DNA of 26,690 nucleotides from Psammoneis japonica (lineage: Eukaryota), in contig QPGO01000252.1 in NCBI GenBank assembly GCA_008632985.1, positions 62,001 to 88,690 of the forward strand, read 5' to 3'. Below the pieces are notes generated by a model. It was given only the letters and a program-made list of their open reading frames with translations, did no database searches and was not told where the DNA came from. Both the position numbers and the translations under genes were made by a program. Below, piece after piece: positions 702 through 17,106 of this stretch. How positions within the stretch are numbered: position 1 is the first letter of the stretch; every line of letters starts with the position of its first letter.

Positions 702-3191
702 CTAGGGTGCCGTCTCGGTCGGCGTCGCTTCACGAGACACGCAAGTATCCGTCTGACATGGCATCTCTGGGGCCTTGTGCCAAAGTGCTCTAAAGTCCTT
801 AATGGCACGGACAAGGTTTGCGCTGCTCTGATACGAAAAGCCGGTGGTCTTTGTGTATCCATCAATCCCGTAAAAAGCTTCTCCGTCGACCGCAGAAAAC
901 TCAAACCGATGCGCCAAGGCGGGGTTGCTCTCAGGAAAGTCTGAGGTAGCGGCATAATCAAAGGTCCTTCCCTTATTGGTGTCCAAGGTTAGCTGGTACA
1001 GCTTGTTGTTGTACACGTAGCCAGCCACATTTACGATCCACTCGTCGTCATCGAGGTCGACACGGGGGTGAATGACTTTGCTGGGATTGGCTAAACCAAT
1101 CTTCCTTGAAAATGATGGCGCTCCCTCGCGCTCGACAAAGGTGTGAAAACCGACAATGGATGTCAAATCGCCTCTTCGAGTGGTACGTTGCACGATCTGG
1201 AATCCACTTACAGCCGCCTCAGGGCCCTTACCAGACTGATCCTCAGCACTTTCAAGCCTCCAGTAGTCGGGAGAAGCCTCGCGGTCCTTTGTGGTGCTGG
1301 GACTGATGAACTGCGTTTGGCGAAAGCGCTTCACCTGTTTCAAGGGAACACGTGGTGGGGGAAGAACAGAAGTCTTTCGCAGCTGCAAAGGTCCCAACTC
1401 AGCTACACGCAAGGTGTAGGAGAAAGACCCTCGAAAAAATGGGCCAAGACTGAAGCGAACTGCTGGTCGAACCCGCACAGTGGTGGTCCAACGATCGGCC
1501 CGGCGACTGTCCTCTGGCATGATATCCACCAACGCATCCGCCGAAAGTGACAATACTCCGGCCGCACTGACTTCTACACCCAACGAACCGCCAATGCCAG
1601 CAAAACGGGGTTTACCATCACCGACGTTGCTCACAGATACGGATGCAGATCCTAGCAACTCGACTGAGACCTCCTTTTTGCGTATTTCTGCTTTTACCTT
1701 GGCTGACATTTTTAGGCCACCCTGGATCGTTCCATTATCTCGCCAGATGAGATCTCCGCCTTTGCACACCACCACACTGACTTGTGCGAGACCCTTCACT
1801 TTGACTTTTTTGGGTGTGGCACATCCCCGAGCACTGCCCTGCACAAAAGTAAGCTCACCCGAGGGACCCGCAAAGTACTGACCATAGAGTTCCGCCGTAC
1901 GGTTCTTCGAATCACGAAAGAGCGAGTCAAAGCGATAACCGCTTTCCAAATCACCGGCCACGCTACGAGTGATCCTGGATATCCGGGCACACACTTTGGC
2001 CTTGGCGTCGTCGATGCACCCACCTGGAAACTCCACAAGCTCCTTTCCGACTGCCGGCTGGAGCTGACGGTTATTGTCAGGAAATTTAGATTCATCAGGT
2101 TGCGGTTCATCGTTCACTGGGTGCTCTTCGAGTGCCATGGCCATAGCCATTTCTTTGGGAACCTCCGTCATTTCATCACCTGTCAATGGCTCAGCCATGA
2201 GAAACATAGTTTCTTCATACATGGCGCCCTTGTTACGACTCGAGTACTGACGGATGGCATATGGCTTTCCGTCTACACGAGTTTCCAGATATTCCCACCG
2301 ATCCGGAAGAAGGCCTGCCTCCACCAGTACGCGCTGGTCTTCCGCGGCATCGTACAAACGAGCCGCCTGGTCAAACGTCAAAACGTAACGCACAAGCTCC
2401 ACTCCACCCTCCGTCACGAACCCATCCTCTTCCCACATGTCCATCATGTCTTCGTCATCCTCGTCCAACACATCCGCGCCACGAGGTGCTTCTGCGGAAA
2501 GGACGTTTGGCTGACTCTGGCTCCACGCCACGGTAGCTGCGTTTTGCTTGTTATACACAACAGAATACTCATCCCAAACAAACATTCGTTCCCCTGTGGC
2601 GAGGCGACGAACATGGGGTCCATCGGATCCATCCGGCAGAGGGTCACATTCGACAATGTCCAGGCCTTCAATGCACATTTGCATGTGCTGTGTGTGCGTT
2701 TTATGTGCGCGTCGCAATAGACCAAAAGGACCAGCGGGCGACGGAGCGGGAGTGTCTGGCTCGGTTGGCGTGGAGCTGGGATTGGCAGAGGGTCCAATGG
2801 TTGGCTCGAATGTCATGGGAGCCACACTTGGTGCCGAGCTAGGTTTGAGACTTGGAGCCACGGTGGGGTGGAAGGTTGGGGAGTTCGAGGGAGACATGCT
2901 TGGTGACACGGATGGAGCACTCGTGTGAGACATGCTGGGGTGAGCGCTGGGCGAAGCACTCGGCAGTGATGATGGGGAATCTGCCCCCTTCGCAATTTTG
3001 TTCTTGTCTTTCTTGTCCTTTTTCAAATCACGAACCGCCATCTTGCTCGTTTGTCCGCGAAGGCGACGCGGGAGAACAACCTTGTCGTCAATGACTCCCG
3101 CAGATGCCGCGGAAGCAAAACTTGAATTAGCTCCATATGATGCCGAAAGAAGTAGAAGGGCAAGCCAAGTGGTGGCAAAGGAACACTTCAT
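702..3191 (-). CDS. Secreted 829-aa protein: signal peptide, Lys cluster, PS/PT repeat stalk, C-terminal jacalin-like lectin domain
   Basis: Uninterrupted ORF with N-terminal MKCSFATTWLALLLLSASYG, KKDKKDK and PSASPSAHPSMS repeats. The C-terminal LDDDEWIVNVAGY...LYQLTLDTNKGRTF...FEF...FYGIDG matches the jacalin-like beta-prism pattern. Confidence 0.8.
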   Translation of the reverse strand: MKCSFATTWLALLLLSASYGANSSFASAASAGVIDDKVVLPRRLRGQTSKMAVRDLKKDKKDKNKIAKGADSPSSLPSASPSAHPSMSHTSAPSVSPSMSPSNSPTFHPTVAPSLKPSSAPSVAPMTFEPTIGPSANPSSTPTEPDTPAPSPAGPFGLLRRAHKTHTQHMQMCIEGLDIVECDPLPDGSDGPHVRRLATGERMFVWDEYSVVYNKQNAATVAWSQSQPNVLSAEAPRGADVLDEDDEDMMDMWEEDGFVTEGGVELVRYVLTFDQAARLYDAAEDQRVLVEAGLLPDRWEYLETRVDGKPYAIRQYSSRNKGAMYEETMFLMAEPLTGDEMTEVPKEMAMAMALEEHPVNDEPQPDESKFPDNNRQLQPAVGKELVEFPGGCIDDAKAKVCARISRITRSVAGDLESGYRFDSLFRDSKNRTAELYGQYFAGPSGELTFVQGSARGCATPKKVKVKGLAQVSVVVCKGGDLIWRDNGTIQGGLKMSAKVKAEIRKKEVSVELLGSASVSVSNVGDGKPRFAGIGGSLGVEVSAAGVLSLSADALVDIMPEDSRRADRWTTTVRVRPAVRFSLGPFFRGSFSYTLRVAELGPLQLRKTSVLPPPRVPLKQVKRFRQTQFISPSTTKDREASPDYWRLESAEDQSGKGPEAAVSGFQIVQRTTRRGDLTSIVGFHTFVEREGAPSFSRKIGLANPSKVIHPRVDLDDDEWIVNVAGYVYNNKLYQLTLDTNKGRTFDYAATSDFPESNPALAHRFEFSAVDGEAFYGIDGYTKTTGFSYQSSANLVRAIKDFRALWHKAPEMPCQTDTCVSREATPTETAP

Positions 3192-3298
3192 GTTTTCTGG
3201 TCAAAATGCACATGTTTCAATGCTGCCCAGAGTTTGTTCAACAACACACTGATAGCGATTTGCGGCGCATTTACTGCAACCTAGCTTCAGACCGCTGC

Positions 3299-3985
3299 AT
3301 GGTAAAAGGCCATGAAGAGTGGAAGGCTGAGAAACGGGCAGCGATCAAAAAACGCAAAGAAGAAAAGAGGTCAATACCCAAGTGGAATAGGTATGATAAT
3401 AGACTGCAAGGGGGTGTCTATGATCGAACAGTGCCTGATGGTTTGGATCAAGGGGCACGCATGGCTTTGAGTGTGGCACTGGAAAAAAAATTCGATGAGT
3501 ATCCCGACGCTCCTTATGGTGTTCAAGCAGCCATGGGAAGCAAAAGGGATTGGATACATTGGGGCTTGCGGCTCGCGTCCATGCCTTCGCGTACTCGTGT
3601 CGTCCTCGAGGAATATCAGAAAGACATCCAGCTTCACATCGATTTGCTGGACGCACTTGGAGCCCAAACTGAGGAAGGGTATCAAGGAACTTTTGATTAC
3701 GTTCGTGCTTTACACTGCATCTTTCAGGACGCCTTTAGGCGTTGTCACCTACCAGCACCTCCACGTTTGAACTTATACGCAATGGAGATTCGTGACGACG
3801 GGGCTGACACCAAGAGTCGTATGAGGTCCTTTCGAGGATACAAGTTTCGAGCCTTTGGCATTATCCAAGTAGTAAATGATCATCCCATGGAACTGATCGA
3901 GGAGGAAGAGACGCATCCAGTCATTCCAGCTACCAAACGACGAGAGTACCCAAACGTTTCCAGGACAAGGTACAATTACTACTAG
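3299..3985 (+). CDS. Hypothetical protein (~228 aa, basic N-terminus)
   Basis: Long ORF with protein-like composition. ATG 3299 was chosen because upstream starts overlap or abut the divergent gene at 3191. No recognised domain. Confidence 0.6.
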   Translation: MVKGHEEWKAEKRAAIKKRKEEKRSIPKWNRYDNRLQGGVYDRTVPDGLDQGARMALSVALEKKFDEYPDAPYGVQAAMGSKRDWIHWGLRLASMPSRTRVVLEEYQKDIQLHIDLLDALGAQTEEGYQGTFDYVRALHCIFQDAFRRCHLPAPPRLNLYAMEIRDDGADTKSRMRSFRGYKFRAFGIIQVVNDHPMELIEEEETHPVIPATKRREYPNVSRTRYNYY

Positions 3986-4266
3986 CTCAGATCAAATCGC
4001 TTATTGGGCGCAAGTCAATAGTGTGTGGCATTTGCAAAAGTCTGTGTGGGCAGAGACAATGAACAAACTGCTTTAAAGAACAATGGACTATACCTCTTCT
4101 TTTCTAGCATCTAATAGCACCATTTTTTCCACCCTGGATTCCTAGAGAGATACTTGTAATGGGACACAGGAGCTTTTCACCGAACCAGCAATCCGGCAAA
4201 ATCCATCTTGTGCCTCCCTACTCTCTACTCTAGAGCTAGTTCGGTTTTTTGTCGATCATTTCGTTC

Positions 4267-4750
4267 TCCGTCCTTCACTTCACTACGGGCGGGTGGGCTG
4301 CGCTAGTCCCGCCCTCTCACGCACGCGACGGCCTTTTTCAGTCGTGCACGCCACTTCTTCTTTGTTGTTCCATCTCGTCCTATCTCCGTAATGTCTCTTT
4401 ATGTATTTCAAAGCATGGCTGCCAATCAGGCAGCACACAGCAAACAAAACAAAACTTCCTGTTCAAAGTTCAAAACGCTGCCTGTTCTCTTTTTGTAAAA
4501 CCTTTTGCCTGTCTTGCTTGTTTGTCGCAAGTGCGCTAACCTCTCTGCTCACAAGGCTCATTTGTTTCGACTGTGTGCTGCATTCTAGAGAGTCTAGAAC
4601 AGAAGAAGGAAACTGGAGCACGAATGCTGTGTTTGCATCAGAAAAGAAGCTTGCACTTGACCTGCAAACTGTTGAATGTGCAGCATGGAGTCTGCCAGAA
4701 AGTGGCATCTCGAACGACGACACGTCGATGTTGGTTCGAGGCCCTTGGAC
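4267..4750. repeat. Degenerate direct repeat, copy 1
   Basis: Shares ordered blocks with 5804-6342: TCCGTCCTTCACTTC (4267/5804), TTTTCAGTCGTGCA, ATGTATTTCAAA, GCACACAGCAAA, AGAAGGAAACT, GCTTGCACT, TGCCAGAAAG and GACGACACGTCGATGTT (4716/6306). Confidence 0.9.
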
Positions 4751-4809
4751 CTGCCTCGCATGTCTCTTGTTGATCATTTTGTGTTCCATTGCATGAGATC
4801 CAAGAGTCA

Positions 4810-5759
4810 TCACTGTGCTTTGTGCAACATCACCTGCAATGAATGACGCTGGACTGCGGCATGTTTCCTTGCCGCTGTGCTCGAGGATGGTGCAAAGTGA
4901 ACAGCGCCATCATCATCATGCATTTCTTGTTTTGCATTTGCAAGTTGGTTTTGCAGCTGCTGCATTGTGTCCTTTTTGGGGACTCCAATCAAAGCAAACT
5001 CCTTTGATGCAGCTTGCACTTCTTTTTCAACCTTCGCCGATGATTGACCCACTTTCGCCATGTTCCAATTGAAAAATGCCACAAATTTGTCATTCCATGC
5101 TTTGTTGTCAATGGTTGTGCCATGCTTCTTCTTTCTCCATTCAAAGCCTGTTGATTCAAATGCTTCTTTTTGATCATCGTGCATCGTTGCACATCAACCC
5201 AATGAGAAAGGTGCCGAGCACATTTTCGCGGGCACCTGACATCGAATGTTCTCCAACTGGAAAACCTTCAAACTCTCTCTTGCTTCTTTTTCCAACTGGC
5301 AACATCATTTGACAGCACATGTTGCAACTGCTGGGAGACATTTGGCACGAGTGCTGCTCAATGTTTGCGTCGCTTGCTCCCCTGCTTGCCCCCGTCAGTT
5401 TCAACAACATCTTTTCTTCAGAAGAGAAGCCTCGCCGTTGTCTTTTTCTGTTGCTGGTCCAAGCCAAACCCCTTCGTTTGCTCATCTTCTCATTTTTCCT
5501 CTTGGGTGTGGATGTCGTCCATCGGGCTTTAAAGACAGAGGTTGAAGGTGTCTGAGAAGCTGTTTGCTCGTTGTTGCTGCTCTTCTCTGAGAGGTTCACC
5601 CTCTCTCTGACATGTGAACTTCTGGCCCATTGTCCTCAGTGACATCAATTGCAACTGAACGGTGCATGCAAGTTGGTTGCAGACCGATCTAAGGACGGCG
5701 TAAGAGTCGTCATTGCTGCCATCGTCGTCAAATGTCAATTTTTCTCGCGTCGTGCCCAT
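4810..5759 (-). pseudogene. Decayed helicase-associated (HA) domain gene
   Basis: HA motifs are split over three frames between about 5297 and 5075: SWKKKQE / SLKVFQLENIRCQVP / LSHWVDVQR / QKEAFESTGFEW...KAWNDKF. Possible ATG at 5759 (MGTTREKLTF). Boundaries are approximate. Confidence 0.65.
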
Positions 5760-5803
5760 TTTTCACGCCGTCTGCACTACGTACGACGATCAGCAGCCCA
5801 CCG

Positions 5804-6342
5804 TCCGTCCTTCACTTCGTGAACCTCTGACGGCTTTTCAGTCGTGCATGCCATTTCTTTGTTGTTCGTCCATTACACTGTATCTCTTTACGCTATCTCC
5901 GCTCTTTATATGTATTTCAAATGTTTGTTACGAATCAGGTGGCACACAGCAAAACAATAACGAAATTCAGTGTTTGAAACTTCCAAACGCCGCCTGTTTC
6001 CTTTTTTGCAAACTCTTTTTTCTGTTTTGCTTGTTTCTCGTTCAAACGAAGCGCTCGACTACCACTTTGTGTGCTCAGTCTCTCTTGCTCCCATGCCTCA
6101 CTGCTTTCGAAAGTACATAATATTCTAGAGAGAGAGATTCTAGAATATAGTAGAAGGAAACTAGAACACGGACTCCATGTTCACATCAAAAAGGATGCTT
6201 GCACTCTAGAGTGTTTGAGCGTACAATACTTGACCAGCAATATTTTGAATGCGCCATACGGACAGTACTACCACATGCAATTTGCCAGAAAGCGGCGTCT
6301 CGAAAGACGACACGTCGATGTTTGATTTTAGGCCACGGAACT
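5804..6342. repeat. Degenerate direct repeat, copy 2
   Basis: Colinear with copy 1 (4267-4750), with extra short segments. It retains TpA and CpG sites that copy 1 has lost. Confidence 0.9.
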
Positions 6343-6689
6343 ACCATGTCCATTATTTTTTTCTATTCTGACTGCTACCGCAGTTTCTACAGACAAACTA
6401 TGGCTGTCGGTAGAGAGCCGTCGTCTTTGTCAGAAAAGCTACAAACGAATCGGAACGTAAGGTACTGTACGTACTGCGCGCTTTACAATCAATAGTTTTG
6501 CGGTGTACCGCATAACCCATACAAAACAGAGAGATTCTCTCAAGAAGTATTTTCTATTGGTTACATGTACTGTAAATATAGGGTTCCCCGAGCCGAGTTG
6601 TACCAGCAAAGCTTGAATCAATCGCAAACAATGTTACTCCCAACTATTTGCCCAAAATTCATACAAAACGTTTCCTTGTGTACGAGGGT

Positions 6690-6705
6690 GGATTTGATAA
6701 AATCC
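6690..6705 (-). promoter_or_regulatory. Histone 3' UTR stem-loop of H2A
   Basis: Minus strand reads AACT-GGATTT-TATC-AAATCC-ACCC: a 6-bp stem and 4-nt loop, 29 nt after the stop codon. Confidence 0.85.
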
Positions 6706-6734
6706 AGTTTTGTTGTTGTTATCGTTCAAGAGAC

Positions 6735-7103
6735 TTACTTTCCCGACTTTTTCGGCAAGAGCACGGCATGAATGTTGGGCAAGACACCACCCGACGCAAT
6801 CGTGACTCCACCCAACAGTTTGTTGAGCTCCTCGTCATTCTTGACCGCCAACGTAATGTGCCTCGGCACGATACGGCTCTTCTTGTTGTCTCGTGCGGCA
6901 TTGCCGGCCAATTCCAAAATTTCGGCACAGAGATACTCCAACACGGCAGCAAGGTACACGGGCGCACCCGCTCCCATTCTCGTGGCGTACTTGCCCTGAC
7001 GGAGATAACGTCCGATACGACCCACGGGAAACTGCAAACCAGCCTTGGCCGATGCGGTGGTGCTCTTTTTCTCGCCACGACCTCCTTTTCCTTTTCCAGA
7101 CAT
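6735..7103 (-). CDS. H2A: Histone H2A
   Basis: [10 protein letters not shown]...[10 protein letters not shown]...[12 protein letters not shown]...IVPRHI...LLPKKSGK, 122 aa. Confidence 0.99.
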
Positions 7104-10666: not shown

Positions 10667-12277
10667 TTACACGCCTCGGGATGTCAGTATTTCATCGCAC
10701 CGCGACATCAGCCATACAACATTGGGCACCGACTTGTTGTACGAGTTCTTGTTCATCGTACGAGCACGTCCTGCTTCATCATCTTGGTTCACGGGATCAA
10801 ACCTCGAAGAGGCATATGCAATCACGAAACGACAAACATCAAGCACTCCAGTCTCATACTGCTCCATAAATGTATCGTAATCAAAGTTCTGGAGGGCATC
10901 GTTTGCATTCCGGAACGCTCCATATTCAACAAGATACTTTTGGAGTTCGTCAAAGTAATACCGCAAAAGAACGTCTTCGCCGCCATGTACCAACCTGTCG
11001 GCATGCACGGCGGATGTCATAAAATGCGCAATATCCGAAGCCGCCAAGCCAAATCCCGTCCATTGAAAGTCGATTAGTCCAACTTGTAGTTTCGATGATT
11101 TGGAACTACGGCGAAACAAGAAATTTGCCTGCTTTGGATCTCCGTGGATAAATGTGCGATACTGGAGGTATGGTTCCGACCAAGCGTCATCGGCAAAAGG
11201 ATGAGACAGGCGGCCCATTTCTTCTGCCACTGTCTCTAAGCGTGCTCCCAAACTATCCCAATACTCAAAACATGAAAGTTCTTTTTCACATTTCAGTCGT
11301 TCTGTTGCCCATCGTTCTGCGACAATCTCACAGTGGTTTGGGTTGCGTTTTAGCTGCATATAACATGCTGATTTCCATACTCCCTCTTGTAGCTCCCTGG
11401 CCGCATCTGCGTCGTTCCAAAAGGACGATCCATCCCAAAAGAATGCATGGATCTTTGCAAGTGTCGTTAGGGCCGCCTCACATTCCTCTACATCTTGTAA
11501 CAGCCATTGTTGGTACCAACCATCAGACGGCGCAAGGTCCTCGAGCAAAAAACTGAACTTGGATTCAATGGGATTGGATTCGTTCGGCTCGAGATGTGCA
11601 TCCAAACATGTAGGGATGCGCACCCCCGCCTTCTCGGTCACATCCCGACAAGCTTTGGAGGACAAAAAGGCTGCCACTACTTGGTACGACTTGCAATCCG
11701 TGACAAGTTTGTGCGGTGCAGTCTTGAGTTTCTCCCTGGCGTGATGGAGATTTTCAAATATGATTCGTTTGTAGAAGGCTGTTTCTCCACCGGGAATGAG
11801 ACGGACACGGCATGCATTGGACATTAAGCCACGAAACGCTTCTGATTCTGGGCAGGAATAGTCCTCCACGTTTTTAATGCCTAGTTTTTCCGCAAAATAT
11901 TGCGCAGGTAGAAGGCGGCCACTCAAATCACGCACAATGTCAAAACACGGAGCTACTTCCTCATCTGTTTCGAGCCCGGATCTAGTATTTTCGGAGGATC
12001 TGGTAGAAAGACTCCTATCTACATCATCATCAAGGATTTTCTCCTCCTGACTTGGATCGTCCTTCTTGCTACTAGATGTGCCGATATCTAGAATAGAATC
12101 TTGCTTGACACCAGAACGTGGCATTGGATGACGGACAAATCCTTGGTGGGCAGCATGACGACGACGATTCAATGTCGAGGCGGTGTGTGTGACTTGTGGC
12201 TGGACGATGAAGGCAGACGTAGCAGCAGCATGGCCGGCGAAAAATATCGCAAAGTAGATTGAAGCGAGGGACGTCAT
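10667..12277 (-). CDS. Ecdysteroid-kinase-like (EcKL; APH/choline kinase superfamily) protein with bipartite plastid-type leader
   Basis: Motifs FLLEDL, HGDPKQANFLF and LIDFQW. The leader MTSLASIYFAIFFAGHAAATSA|FIV starts at ATG 12277. Confidence 0.85.
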   Translation of the reverse strand: MTSLASIYFAIFFAGHAAATSAFIVQPQVTHTASTLNRRRHAAHQGFVRHPMPRSGVKQDSILDIGTSSSKKDDPSQEEKILDDDVDRSLSTRSSENTRSGLETDEEVAPCFDIVRDLSGRLLPAQYFAEKLGIKNVEDYSCPESEAFRGLMSNACRVRLIPGGETAFYKRIIFENLHHAREKLKTAPHKLVTDCKSYQVVAAFLSSKACRDVTEKAGVRIPTCLDAHLEPNESNPIESKFSFLLEDLAPSDGWYQQWLLQDVEECEAALTTLAKIHAFFWDGSSFWNDADAARELQEGVWKSACYMQLKRNPNHCEIVAERWATERLKCEKELSCFEYWDSLGARLETVAEEMGRLSHPFADDAWSEPYLQYRTFIHGDPKQANFLFRRSSKSSKLQVGLIDFQWTGFGLAASDIAHFMTSAVHADRLVHGGEDVLLRYYFDELQKYLVEYGAFRNANDALQNFDYDTFMEQYETGVLDVCRFVIAYASSRFDPVNQDDEAGRARTMNKNSYNKSVPNVVWLMSRCDEILTSRGV

Positions 12278-12826
12278 GGTCAGGAGGTACTTTATTTGAG
12301 TTGATGAATGAGGTACTGTAAAGATTGTTGGAGCGTCGAAGAGGCGAAAGAGGAAGCTGAGAGACATATAAATATCGCAGATCGCACAAAGAACTGAAAC
12401 TTGGGACAGCGAGAACATGAATCATCGCAGATGTTGCCTTCAACTGGCGCGCCCCGAGCTTCGGGTTTCGTTGACCGACAGACGATCGCCGGGACTCTCA
12501 ACGTTACAACTAATTTCGAAATTGCCAATCAAATCAATTCAAGCAAGATCGCGCAGATAAGTCTAAGGCCCCTCTCTATAGCTCTAGGCTCTCCACATTT
12601 CCCTCGCTCTCTGTACTAGTAGCCTATAGAGTAGCTAGTAGCGTATAAGTAGCTTTTGAAAAAACAGGAGGAGGTTGATAAGAGTGTAGGCTGGTTTCCG
12701 TGGGCGACGAATTGCGACTCGCTGGGGCATCTTGCTGCTTACTATCTTAAAATAATGCACTCCACCATGGGTGCAGTGAAAAAGGACACCACAATCCCCA
12801 GAGAAAAATCTGAAACTATTCAATCC

Positions 12827-14624: not shown

Positions 14625-15561
14625 TGCTATGGCAAATATGAATAGTATTGCGTGATCAACGACCTGTGGACGCCATTGTCGACACTGTTCTCAAGCGGGT
14701 CTCAGTTTCCCTTCGTCAACAAAAATGTCGCCAACAAAAATTGCGCCGATGACACGACTGATGAAGATGGACGGATGGACGGACAGAAGGCATTCTCAAT
14801 GTCTGTCCATCATACGTCCTCTATTCTGGGCCGTACAAGTATACACAAAGATTCTACGAAGCGTGATTTGTACAGGAATCATGGTACAACCACATTTTAA
14901 AGAAGTTATTTGTTATTCGTGTATAGAGTATTTTATACATCGAGTACGTATGCACCTTCGTGAAAGACGTACCAAAGAAAAACGTATGTAGGATATGTAC
15001 TATGCCCCACATTGGCGCGCTTCTGCCACACAACGCCACTGATCGATCCTCACCACACTGCGTGCAAGTCTCCCTCTGGCAGTCATTCGTGCCGCTTGTT
15101 GCGTTCAATCAGAAGGACTGTGCAGTTATCATGAGGTCGTTCACGTCATCTGCTATTCTTGCTGTTACCATTTGTGGTGAGTCAACGAAAAACAAAGCCT
15201 TTTTCTCCGTCATGTTTGCACCACCACGTGAATCGGCGAAGACCGACAGCGAACGCTTTTTTCGTGATCGTTGGTGATGGCTTCAGTACTAATTCCGTAG
15301 AATCAACGTGCTGTAGATTTTACGGTGACGCGCCGTATATCGGTTTCAACACGTGTATGAAGTGACATCATCAGTATTTATCAATGGCTTCTTACTTCAA
15401 GCTTTTCGTTAAATGATCACGACGTTTCGATGTCTTCAGCGACAGGCGTCAGTCGTCAACTCGAGCGTGTTGACGTGTGGTGTTGTTGCGTGTGCGTGTT
15501 CTGTTTTGACGACCAGAAGGGATTCCCACTTTTTTCTACGAAGAAGTTGTGATTGCTGACC

Positions 15562-17106
15562 ATGGCTAATCGTCGTCCTAACACTCTGCCTCTTTCACCC
15601 GTGCTGGTTTTGATCGTTTCAGCATGTCAGACGATTGACAACAGAGCAGTTGCTTTTACGTCTCCCTGCGGTGTCTCAAGAAGTCGCCCAAGTTCTTGCG
15701 AAGCCCTTCACGTCAGCATGTCTTCTGTTTCTGCATCTTTGGAACCGTCTTCCATGTTTGGCTCTGATTTGGAACGTGAACTGAAAGAGCATCTCGCCCA
15801 TACACAGAAGAAAAGCGGACCTAGATCGTCTATGAAGCGTCGCAAAAAGCCCCGCACCATGATTAGACCAAAGAGTTTGAACAGTAGCAGCGCGAAAATC
15901 GAATCTTCATCGACACCTTCCAAGAAGAAAATGAAGAAGTATCCTGATCTTTTGAGTTTTGAAGAAGAGAAACAGCTTACGAATGATCTCCGTACACTGC
16001 GTACTGTAGTAAGGATTCGCGACGAGTTGACAGCATCCTTTGCGGACGTTCCTGGACTGGAAGTGCACGATGATCTCCACAGTTACCCTACCGAATCGCA
16101 GTGGGCCAAGGCATGTGGTCTCAGTGTTATGCAACTTCGCCGAATCATGCATGATGGACAAGAAGCTCGGTCGAAACTCGTTTCTGCGAACGGGGGTCTC
16201 GTAACTTCGATTGCCAAGAAACACTACTATTCGCTCAAGCACGCAACGGAGGCTGGGGGCGGTGTTGGTACATTCTTTCACTGCAAGACATGATTCAAGA
16301 AGGAAATTTGGGTGTGATGGAAGCTGCCGAGCGATTTGATCCGGGGCGAGGATTTCGTTTCAGCACATATGCAACGTGGTGGGTAAGGCAGCGGATATTG
16401 AAATCCATATCAGAATATTCCAGAGTAATTCGGTTGCCTGCTCACGGTAAGTCACTTGGACATTACTGCTCGGTTTTTCGGCTTGTTGCCGTGTTTCCAG
16501 TCCGGTCTCTAATTCGTTTTGTTATGTCGTTTTGATCCCTCAGTGCACACAATGCTGAACAAAATCAGCAGAGCGCGACAGGAGATGAACCAGGAGATTG
16601 GACGCATGCCGTCAGATCCAGAACTTGCTCATTTTTTGGAGATCCCGATTGAAAAGCTTCAAATGTACACCGATTCCTCTAGAAATGTCGTCTCTCTTGA
16701 GTTACCGGTCAACCCGGGCGGGAAAATGAAGGAGGACAGAAGAACTCTAGGGGACAAGATCGCTTCTGACTCTCCGACGCCGGAAGAGGATGCCGAAATG
16801 GATTCACTACGACGAGATATTCGTGCAGTCATTAACGAGCTTGCCATAGATGAGCAAGACGTGTTGATGGCCCGATTTGGTTTGGAGGATGGAACTCCGA
16901 GAAACGTGGAAGAGACGAGTAAGAAGCTTGGAATTTCTAGGGACCGCGTTCGAGTTGTGGAAGCTCGAGCGTTGAATAAGTTGCGACACCCCCAAAGAAA
17001 TTACAAACTGAAAGAGTATGTGGGAGGTAACGAAGAAGAAGAACGACTACAGGATCACTTGGATACACTGCCGAACCAGTCGCCTGAAAGAATATGGTCA
17101 TTTTAG
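15562..17106 (+). CDS. Nuclear-encoded, plastid-targeted sigma-70 family RNA polymerase sigma factor (frameshift near 16272; intron 16447-16543)
   Basis: Region 2 ([15 protein letters not shown]...[37 protein letters not shown]), region 3, and region 4 ([22 protein letters not shown]). The GTAAGT...CAG intron gives RLPAH-VHTML. The leader contains AVA|FTSP. Confidence 0.93.

Follow-up and report, generated by a model that had tools for sequence, protein, structure and literature searches.

We analysed a window of 26,690 nucleotides (nt) from contig QPGO01000252.1 of the diatom Psammoneis japonica (positions 62,001 to 88,690 of the forward strand; assembly GCA_008632985.1), in which a stretch of 1,093 nt, at positions 4597-5689, contains a single TA dinucleotide. 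This TA desert is real as an observation and is very unlikely to be due to chance. The explanation that we favour, on balance and with modest confidence, is that the desert was left by a locus-restricted process that acts at the level of DNA and converts TpA to TpG or CpA, that the process is of the kind recently described in Bigelowiella natans, and that it is active, or was so until recently, on one silenced insert. The observations behind this explanation are the erasure of TA, a matching gain of TG and CA, a halving of CpG, untouched levels of AA and TT, and a boundary that lies inside a duplicated segment (Table 1).

TA dinucleotides start only at 4595, at 5530 (within TTTAAA) and at 5690, leaving gaps of 935 nt and 160 nt. 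From base composition 73 TA would be expected in the desert, giving an observed/expected ratio (o/e) of 0.01, and the expectation is still about 42 when the o/e of the rest of the window (0.57) is used. The neighbouring segment 5701-6300 has 29. At the window TA rate, the probability of finding no TA over 933 positions is 8e-16, or 8e-13 after multiplication by the 975 possible starts. We simulated 300 sequences of 26,690 nt each with a first-order Markov model; their longest TA gap had a mean of 183 nt and a maximum of 296 nt, i.e. none of the 300 reached even one third of the real gap. For all of the other dinucleotides, the longest gap in the window is at most 242 nt. These counts bear out much of an earlier reading of this DNA made from its letters alone (the sequence-only reading): the TA-free intervals that it gave, from 4595 to 5530 and again to 5690, were the same on recounting, and its hand count of 29 TA in 5701-6300 was exact. 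It had also held that open reading frames (ORFs) lying wholly inside the desert lack Tyr and stop only at TGA. The stop codons agree, with TAA occurring once (at the 5530 site), TAG not at all, and TGA 23 times on the plus strand and 27 times on the minus strand; ORFs in the desert thus end only at TGA and are without Tyr. Its description of the stretch as T/A-rich does not hold, as A+T is 52.7% in the desert against 51.8% in the window, which is not notable.

The edges of the desert are soft, with shoulders at 4350-4596 and 5530-5800. In 300-nt windows starting at 4350 and 4500 the TA o/e is 0.34 and 0.15 and the TG+CA o/e is 1.40 and 1.54, and in the window starting at 5550 the TA o/e is 0.24. 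The TA dinucleotides that survive at the left edge (4585-4599) and inside the desert (5528-5533) all lie in palindromic hexamers, TCTAGA twice and TTTAAA once, a setting that may be due to chance or may be a context protected from the process. The second-longest TA gap in the window, 288 nt at 2840-3128, lies in a GC-rich, Pro/Ser-rich coding stretch. The stretch is the N-terminal part, rich in Pro, Ser and Ala, of a minus-strand ORF of 832 codons that matches DUF6740. TG+CA is only mildly raised there (1.37), and the gap is probably explained by composition and codon content.

That the desert arose by chance, from low complexity or from CpG decay alone, or that it is an assembly or sequencing artefact, is close to refuted. 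CpG decay does raise TG and CA, and the CG o/e of the desert is indeed low (0.56), but such decay cannot remove TA; the odds and simulations given above speak against chance, and no tandem or internal repeats were found within the desert. The sequence-only reading had called for confirmation in reads. A Logan contig from a public run, X1 (8,048 nt, word depth 60.7), spans 4000-6600 in one unbranched piece and is TA-free at the same positions; this separately built contig differs from the window in three letters (4735 T>C; 5138-5139 CA>TT), none of which makes a TA. Run X1 is possibly the source of this DNA itself and not an independent isolate, so the agreement is not fully independent, although it still rules out an assembly slip. 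A second run, X2, covers only 4000-4234, and the runs found to carry this sequence include no RNA run. The differing letters (3 of 1,093 in the desert against 0 of 1,508 in the flanks) are not significantly concentrated (Fisher p=0.07, or p=0.18 when they are taken as two events). We know of no platform error that would delete a single dinucleotide throughout 1.1 kb while leaving the flanks intact.

The loss of TA is accompanied by a gain of TG (125 against 75.9 expected; o/e 1.65, elsewhere 1.13) and of CA (96 against 58.6; o/e 1.64, elsewhere 1.17), in line with the remark in the sequence-only reading that the desert is full of TG/CA. CG is depleted (34 against 60.9; o/e 0.56, in the rest of the window 1.01). 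AA and TT have o/e of 1.47 and 1.17 (against 1.17 and 1.20 elsewhere in the window); neither is depleted, and the loss is of TA only. We used tetranucleotide centres to draw up a mass balance. Counted in this way there are 221 TG and CA in the desert, whereas 156.3 would be expected from the rest of the window. If the 41.7 TA that should be present are all added to the 156.3, along with 45% of the 64.3 CG, the sum is 226.9, close to the number seen. The account would thus be even had TA and roughly half of CG turned into TG or CA by transitions. CpG methylation decay is the probable source of about 29 of these 65 surplus TG and CA. TG and CA are both high along the whole desert, with no strand switch, so that both strands are affected; a strand-switch pattern of the kind expected from break repair was rejected on the same grounds. 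The tetranucleotide TTGC, like TGCA (see below), is in excess in the desert, with 20 occurrences against 6.8 expected from the rest of the window.

Decay of 5-methylcytosine at CpG thus matches the desert in the excess of TG/CA and the deficit of CpG (CG o/e 0.56 vs 1.01) but not in the disappearance of TA, and in the rest of the window the CG o/e of 1.01 goes with a TA o/e of 0.57. The same compositional facts could also follow from another TA-preferring cause acting on DNA and unrelated to that in B. natans, such as Pol-eta (WA) repair, a transcription or R-loop lesion at TpA, or a miscoding modified base, and the soft boundaries with their shoulders would agree with this. Pol-eta WA mutagenesis, as in vertebrate somatic hypermutation, and ADAR hyper-editing resemble the desert in their A-to-G changes with a 5' T preference over transcription-tied domains of 1-2 kb. 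However, Pol-eta and ADAR both act after a 5' A as well, and ADAR has a neighbour preference in which U is about equal to A at -1. A WA process should deplete AA and TT, which did not happen here, and an ADAR-type preference fails likewise; to our knowledge, ADAR moreover acts on RNA and occurs only in animals. There is also no strand-coordinated pattern, as TG and CA are high throughout. We therefore regard a DNA-level cause of this other sort as quite unlikely, and the Pol-eta WA mechanism that the sequence-only reading had put forward as a candidate does not fit.

The position of the desert relative to a pair of direct repeats, R_A (about 4250-4770) and R_B (about 5787-6365), gives a comparison within the window. 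Between the repeats lies a core of about 1.0 kb (4771-5786) that is present only once in the window. The desert starts in the middle of R_A, at 4597, crosses the core and stops at 5690, about 100 nt before R_B, where TA is at normal levels (o/e 0.65-0.77 in 300-nt windows from 5850 to 6150). For the part of R_A that lies outside the desert, the numbers of TA are 8 in R_A and 15 in R_B; for the part inside it they are 0 and 14. Seven of these 14 TA in R_B align gap-free with the desert, and R_A has CA, AA, TG, AC, GA, TG and TG at these places, i.e. all seven sites are changed despite an overall identity of 79%. In the left shoulder of R_A, TG at 4574 and CA at 4581 are aligned to TA at 6114 and 6121 in R_B. 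As far as two aligned copies can tell, the comparison shows a TA-specific loss in one copy only, and not the route by which it came about. Because R_A and R_B align straight across the left edge, the TA-free state arose or was kept in place and was not carried in by a foreign fragment ending there.

The desert sits in an intergenic gap of 2.7 kb, between a plus-strand gene at 3131-3985 and the minus-strand gene for histone H2A, and such a gap with direct repeats of about 520 nt would suit an insertion, without proving one. When compared with long terminal repeat (LTR) elements and terminal-repeat retrotransposons in miniature (TRIM), the locus has direct repeats of about 520-580 nt with 79% identity and a core of about 1.0 kb, and the edges of the repeats are blurred. 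By eye, we saw no TG...CA repeat ends and no primer-binding site, and no reverse-transcriptase remnant was seen. Near the left ends of the repeats a 9-nt word occurs in opposite orientations (4281-4300 and 5790-5803): GGTGGGCTG stands after the shared TCCGTCCTTCACTTC in R_A, and CAGCCCACC stands before TCCGTCCTTCACTTC in R_B. This hints at a small inversion or a hairpin at the duplication junction.

The transcript-like size of the desert and the flanking direct repeats, about 520 nt long as in a retroelement, would also be in keeping with A-to-I editing at UA in RNA, in which sense and antisense transcripts were edited and reverse transcribed and the locus was then converted by the edited cDNA. 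We consider this very unlikely. As TG and CA are in excess on each strand, both strands would need to have been edited and copied back, and saturation would take repeated rounds; the left edge falls within a repeat whose homology with R_B holds in place, and the repeats lack the visible retroelement features listed above. Fungal repeat-induced point mutation (RIP), to which the sequence-only reading had likened the process, is similar to the one that we favour in that it makes local, saturating, dinucleotide-specific transitions that wreck reading frames in unwanted DNA. Its direction is different, however. RIP changes C to T mainly at CpA and so creates TpA, whereas TA is erased from the desert (o/e 0.01) and CA and TG are raised (1.64 and 1.65). 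RIP also hits both copies of a duplication and ends near its limits, whereas here R_B is untouched and most of the desert is unique in the window.

The closest precedent comes from B. natans, a chlorarachniophyte (Rhizaria), as described in a preprint (Mettrop et al., bioRxiv 10.64898/2026.01.13.699255). There, viral DNA integrated in the genome undergoes hypermutation that is specific to TpA. Two such regions, one from a nucleocytoplasmic large DNA virus (NCLDV; 186 kb) and one from a virophage (25 kb), received 231 of the 302 point mutations seen in the nuclear genome of mutation-accumulation lines; the regional rate was about 6e-7 per site per generation, i.e. about 1000 times the background. 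The mutations there were almost exclusively A to G or T to C, all of them at TpA, and the effect was confined to some lines. The preprint further lists 324 predicted genes with a mean TpA frequency of 0.0018, and 124 clusters of 1-kb windows depleted in TpA and enriched in CpA+TpG, with 78 of 96 genes unannotated. Its authors propose an ADAT2-type adenine deamination of DNA; the enzyme was not identified. The statement in the sequence-only reading that it knew of no characterised system with this signature is therefore outdated, although in the preprint, too, the enzyme is missing.

We applied the 1-kb window cut-offs of the preprint (rho_TpA at most 0.43, together with a rho_CpA+TpG of at least 1.52, with a cluster being at least three consecutive windows; 10.64898/2026.01.13.699255) to our window. 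Among 52 windows only 4501-5500 passes both (rho_TpA 0.04, rho_CpA+TpG 1.65); the windows starting at 4001 (0.36 and 1.44) and 5001 (0.21 and 1.46) fail the TG/CA cut-off. The desert is like the affected DNA of B. natans in its locus-restricted loss of TpA with a gain of TpG and CpA on both strands, in its strictly TpA context, ApA and TpT not being lost, and in the degree of depletion, with 1 TpA in 1,092 dinucleotides to set beside the mean frequency of the TpA-poor genes. Its ORFs are also without annotation, as are most of the affected genes described for B. natans. It is unlike them in that the host is a diatom (Stramenopila), in that CpG is halved as well, and in that the erasure is essentially complete, whereas the NCLDV region is reported to keep 3.3% TpA. 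The main text of the preprint, supplementary tables aside, makes no mention of diatoms or stramenopiles, and our literature search found no report of TpA depletion of this kind in diatoms.

Three minus-strand ORFs, each in a different frame, cover much of the desert (Table 1). We scored them with a codon model for which 11 ORFs from the window, themselves scoring 0.07-0.32 bits/codon, served as the training set. ORF1 scored 0.208 bits/codon, and its other five frames scored -0.17 to -0.42; ORF2 (-0.037) and ORF3 (-0.053) scored about zero, yet each is the best of its six frames. The presence of a minus-strand gene or of its remains is likely. The 357 residues of the three ORFs contain 68 Cys, His, Met, Gln and Trp against 42.1 expected (p=7e-5), with Cys (10 against 4.9), Met (16 against 8.3) and Gln (26 against 16.3) raised and Tyr (1 against 9.8) and Ile (4 against 12.5) lowered. 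These shifts fit changes of TAY to TGY or CAY, ATA to ATG and TAR to CAR or TGG, and are not conservative replacements. A change of TA to TG or CA makes no new in-frame stop, because TGA arises only from TAA, and long open frames can thus persist on both strands.

Searches for homologues gave little. Nothing was above the curated cut-offs of Pfam for four ORFs of the desert, and there was nothing in PHROGs. Word-index searches with ORF1 gave three candidate relatives at near lengths and 115 at longer lengths, none of them significant. An exhaustive HMMER search of 1.84 billion representatives, for which ORF2 was the sole query, gave one match (E 1.4e-6), which was judged spurious as it involves an internally repetitive protein of 432 amino acids and query residues 38-71 only. 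In viral contigs we found no relative of ORF2 and no match to an exact 42-nt word of ORF1; one candidate stretch was counted as related to ORF1 (4810-5193), with no loci returned. In metagenome contigs there were 23 pattern matches to ORF1, none related, and no matches to a 25-nt conserved core of the repeat. An AlphaFold2 single-sequence model of ORF1 (mean pLDDT 48.7) was too poor for a fold search.

An alternative is that the desert was shaped by selection. It would then be a functional transcription unit on the minus strand, with a need to keep UA or TA out of its RNA or DNA, for example in order to survive a UA-cutting endoribonuclease. Bacteria offer parallels. Some bacterial toxin-antitoxin transcripts avoid the cleavage motif of their own toxin, and ACA-poor messages escape MazF; such transcripts share with the desert the complete lack of a short word over a stretch as long as a transcript. 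There, however, the motifs have 3-7 letters and the nuclease is known, whereas here we have a eukaryote, a dinucleotide, no known nuclease, broken frames and no relatives found. In keeping with selection, the TA-free zone has the size and the position of a transcript, with its start some 70 nt downstream of the ATG (5762) and its end in the 3' flank; ORF1 has host-like codon usage; TA in R_A was lost by non-transition routes too (AA, AC, GA and indels); and the TA-free state was kept although many TG and CA could revert. There is even a GT...AG interval of 73 nt (5599-5527) that takes in the lone TA at 5530 and whose phase would allow it to join ORF3 to ORF2, but this was found by eye and is weak, as there are many GT/AG pairs.

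Several results nevertheless make selection an unlikely explanation. No search found relatives, so that there is no sign of a conserved function. The three ORFs lie in three frames, and ORF2 could be joined to ORF1 only by a second GT...AG interval, of about 70 nt near 5165-5231 as identified by eye, which would make a poor intron, its donor being GTGCCC and its acceptor rich in purines. Selection at the level of the mature mRNA should leave TA in introns, and two introns of neighbouring genes, identified by eye, have GTAAG donors and 4-5 TA each, yet the desert holds at most one. The amino-acid shifts are radical, with Cys and Met up, and not conservative as under purifying selection, and the depletion of CpG points to silenced, methylated DNA. 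Our literature search found no eukaryotic precedent for selection of a UA- or TA-free transcript, nor do we know of one. The broken frames among ORF3, ORF2 and ORF1 and the lack of relatives count instead for a mutator acting on TpA, and resemble the mostly unannotated genes described for B. natans.

A possible course of events under the mutational explanation that we favour is as follows. A:T to G:C transitions at TpA, on either strand, would have accumulated over an orphan insert of about 1.1 kb lying between a host gene and the H2A/H2B pair. The insert would be silenced and probably CpG-methylated, with CpG methylation decay running in parallel. In tRNA, the natural substrate of ADAT2/TadA-type enzymes is A34 preceded by U33. 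An enzyme of this type could deaminate adenine in a T-A context in DNA, taking A to I and then to G, which is the chemistry proposed by the authors of the preprint. What sets the target would be a transcription unit or a chromatin state. Repeat homology would not set it, given that R_B is spared and that the desert is for the most part unique in the window. The desert is shifted to the left of the core, as its right edge (5690) is about 100 nt inside the core and R_A contains its left edge (4597) at a depth of about 170 nt, and this shift would fit a minus-strand transcript as the target. The process may be recent or still running, since 221 TG and CA would otherwise have regenerated TA: had it stopped 5% or 10% of neutral divergence ago, TG and CA alone should since have given rise to about 5.5 or 11 new TA, and the probability of seeing at most one would be 0.026 or 0.0002. 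The flanking repeats are 21% diverged.

The central proposal of the sequence-only reading, a local TpA to TpG/CpA mutator, keeps its standing in part. Its local action, its effect on both strands and the matching gain of TG and CA were upheld, and it now has a precedent in B. natans as reported in the preprint. Targeting to repeats was not upheld, as most of the desert is unique in the window, R_B keeps 14 TA where R_A has none, and the X1 contig is unbranched; Pol-eta WA repair was likewise set aside. For the copy-to-copy substitution spectrum that it had asked for, the result is divided: four of the seven aligned sites are TG or CA as it would predict, and three (AA, AC and GA) are not.

A number of results weigh against the explanation that we favour. 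The spectrum just described is not transition-only, a proportion of four in seven being, as judged from this alignment, not distinguishable from background at 79% identity, and seven further TA of R_B lie in or beside indels. The identity of R_A to R_B is equal inside and outside the desert (79.3% vs 79.5%), i.e. there is no extra divergence inside. None of the three differences between the window and X1 falls at TA or is of the predicted type, and no new mutation was observed. A model of TA origin based on tetranucleotide context was no better than simple scaling (deviance 64.0 vs 65.4), a test that had no power, and the count of TGCA, 22 where the rest of the window predicts 5.5, is above a rough, uncomputed estimate of about 12 for an origin from TA and CG. 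There is one locus in one window, and the domain of about 1.1-1.3 kb does not give the three consecutive windows of a cluster in the sense of the preprint. It is a single gene-sized domain of about 1.1 kb, whereas the mutating regions reported for B. natans are 25 kb and 186 kb long; unlike those regions, it is known as an end state only. The searches gave no Pfam, PHROG or sequence relatives that would point to a foreign (viral, virophage or transposon) origin of the target. The precedent is itself a preprint on a different lineage, and it identifies no enzyme.

If the explanation is correct, the TpA mutator would be present in a second major lineage, and the process in B. natans would be no curiosity of that species but a wider eukaryotic means of disabling unwanted DNA, opposite in direction to fungal RIP. 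The kind of process was described very recently and its mechanism is unsolved; what is new here is, with the same modest confidence, the second lineage, as seen at one locus and in its end state. A more far-reaching reading, which we put forward tentatively and hold to be rather doubtful, is that diatoms run the same TpA-specific, DNA adenine-editing defence as B. natans, that this defence is old and common to the Stramenopila-Alveolata-Rhizaria (SAR) group, and that it is here aimed at a single transcription unit, instead of at repeats or large viral islands, and goes on for so long that about 1.1 kb stays TA-free for good. Such a defence would need to be guided by a transcript or by a chromatin mark, and would need an ADAT2/TadA-type deaminase that acts on DNA. 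The locus is small, saturated and sharply placed with respect to a duplicated segment, which makes it a handy test bed for the target, the activity, the link to a transcript and the dependence on ADAT. As TA-free regions keep long open frames, they may pass for orphan genes in annotation.

Table 1. Positions of the TA desert, the repeats and ORFs associated with it, and features of neighbouring genes in the window.
Feature	Position	Strand	Remarks
TA desert	4597-5689	none	1,093 nt with one TA; TG/CA enriched, CpG halved
Only TA inside desert	5530-5531	none	within TTTAAA
Left shoulder	4350-4596	none	partial loss of TA and CpG; two TA left, in TCTAGA, at 4586 and 4595
Direct repeat R_A	4250-4770	+	79% identity to R_B; desert begins inside it at 4597
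Direct repeat R_B	5787-6365	+	normal TA; adjoins core on the right
ORF1	4810-5193	-	127 codons stop to stop; most coding-like part of desert
ORF2	5174-5635	-	153 codons; in another frame than ORF1, 20-nt overlap
ORF3	5529-5762	-	77 codons; ATG at 5762, ends at TAA of the lone TA at 5530; start outside desert
Histone H2A	6735-7103	-	right-hand neighbour of the intergenic gap
Histone 3' stem-loop	6665-6710	-	Rfam RF00032, 29.4 bits (gathering 34); just downstream of H2A
Histone 3' stem-loop	8047-8092	+	Rfam RF00032, 26.9 bits (gathering 34); just downstream of H2B
EcKL/APH (ecdysteroid-kinase-like) ORF	10667-12421	-	stop-to-stop ORF

To the right of the intergenic gap, the H2A gene is followed by a divergent H2B gene with its own stem-loop. 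Although both matches to RF00032 are below the gathering threshold, they are probably credible by their position, and the H2A mRNA would then end at 6665-6710. The stem-loops suggest that this diatom has histone mRNAs of the replication type that end in a stem-loop. We also asked whether the desert could be a decayed copy of H2A and rejected this, as the best local alignments score 28-31, the same as the means for shuffled sequences (27-29).

The named relatives of the kinase-like neighbour gene are all from diatoms (Thalassiosira, Detonula, Skeletonema, Seminavis and others), with 60-72% identity. Many diatom relatives of the EcKL ORF have 700-850 residues and contain an extra inositol-monophosphatase domain (PF00459), which is not found in the ORF at 10667-12421; this part of the gene may lie in an upstream exon or may be absent. 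Further along the window, an intron of about 100 nt (GTAAGT...CAG) interrupts a gene for a sigma-70-type factor (15553-17106, plus strand), which is presumably a sigma factor of the plastid encoded in the nucleus.

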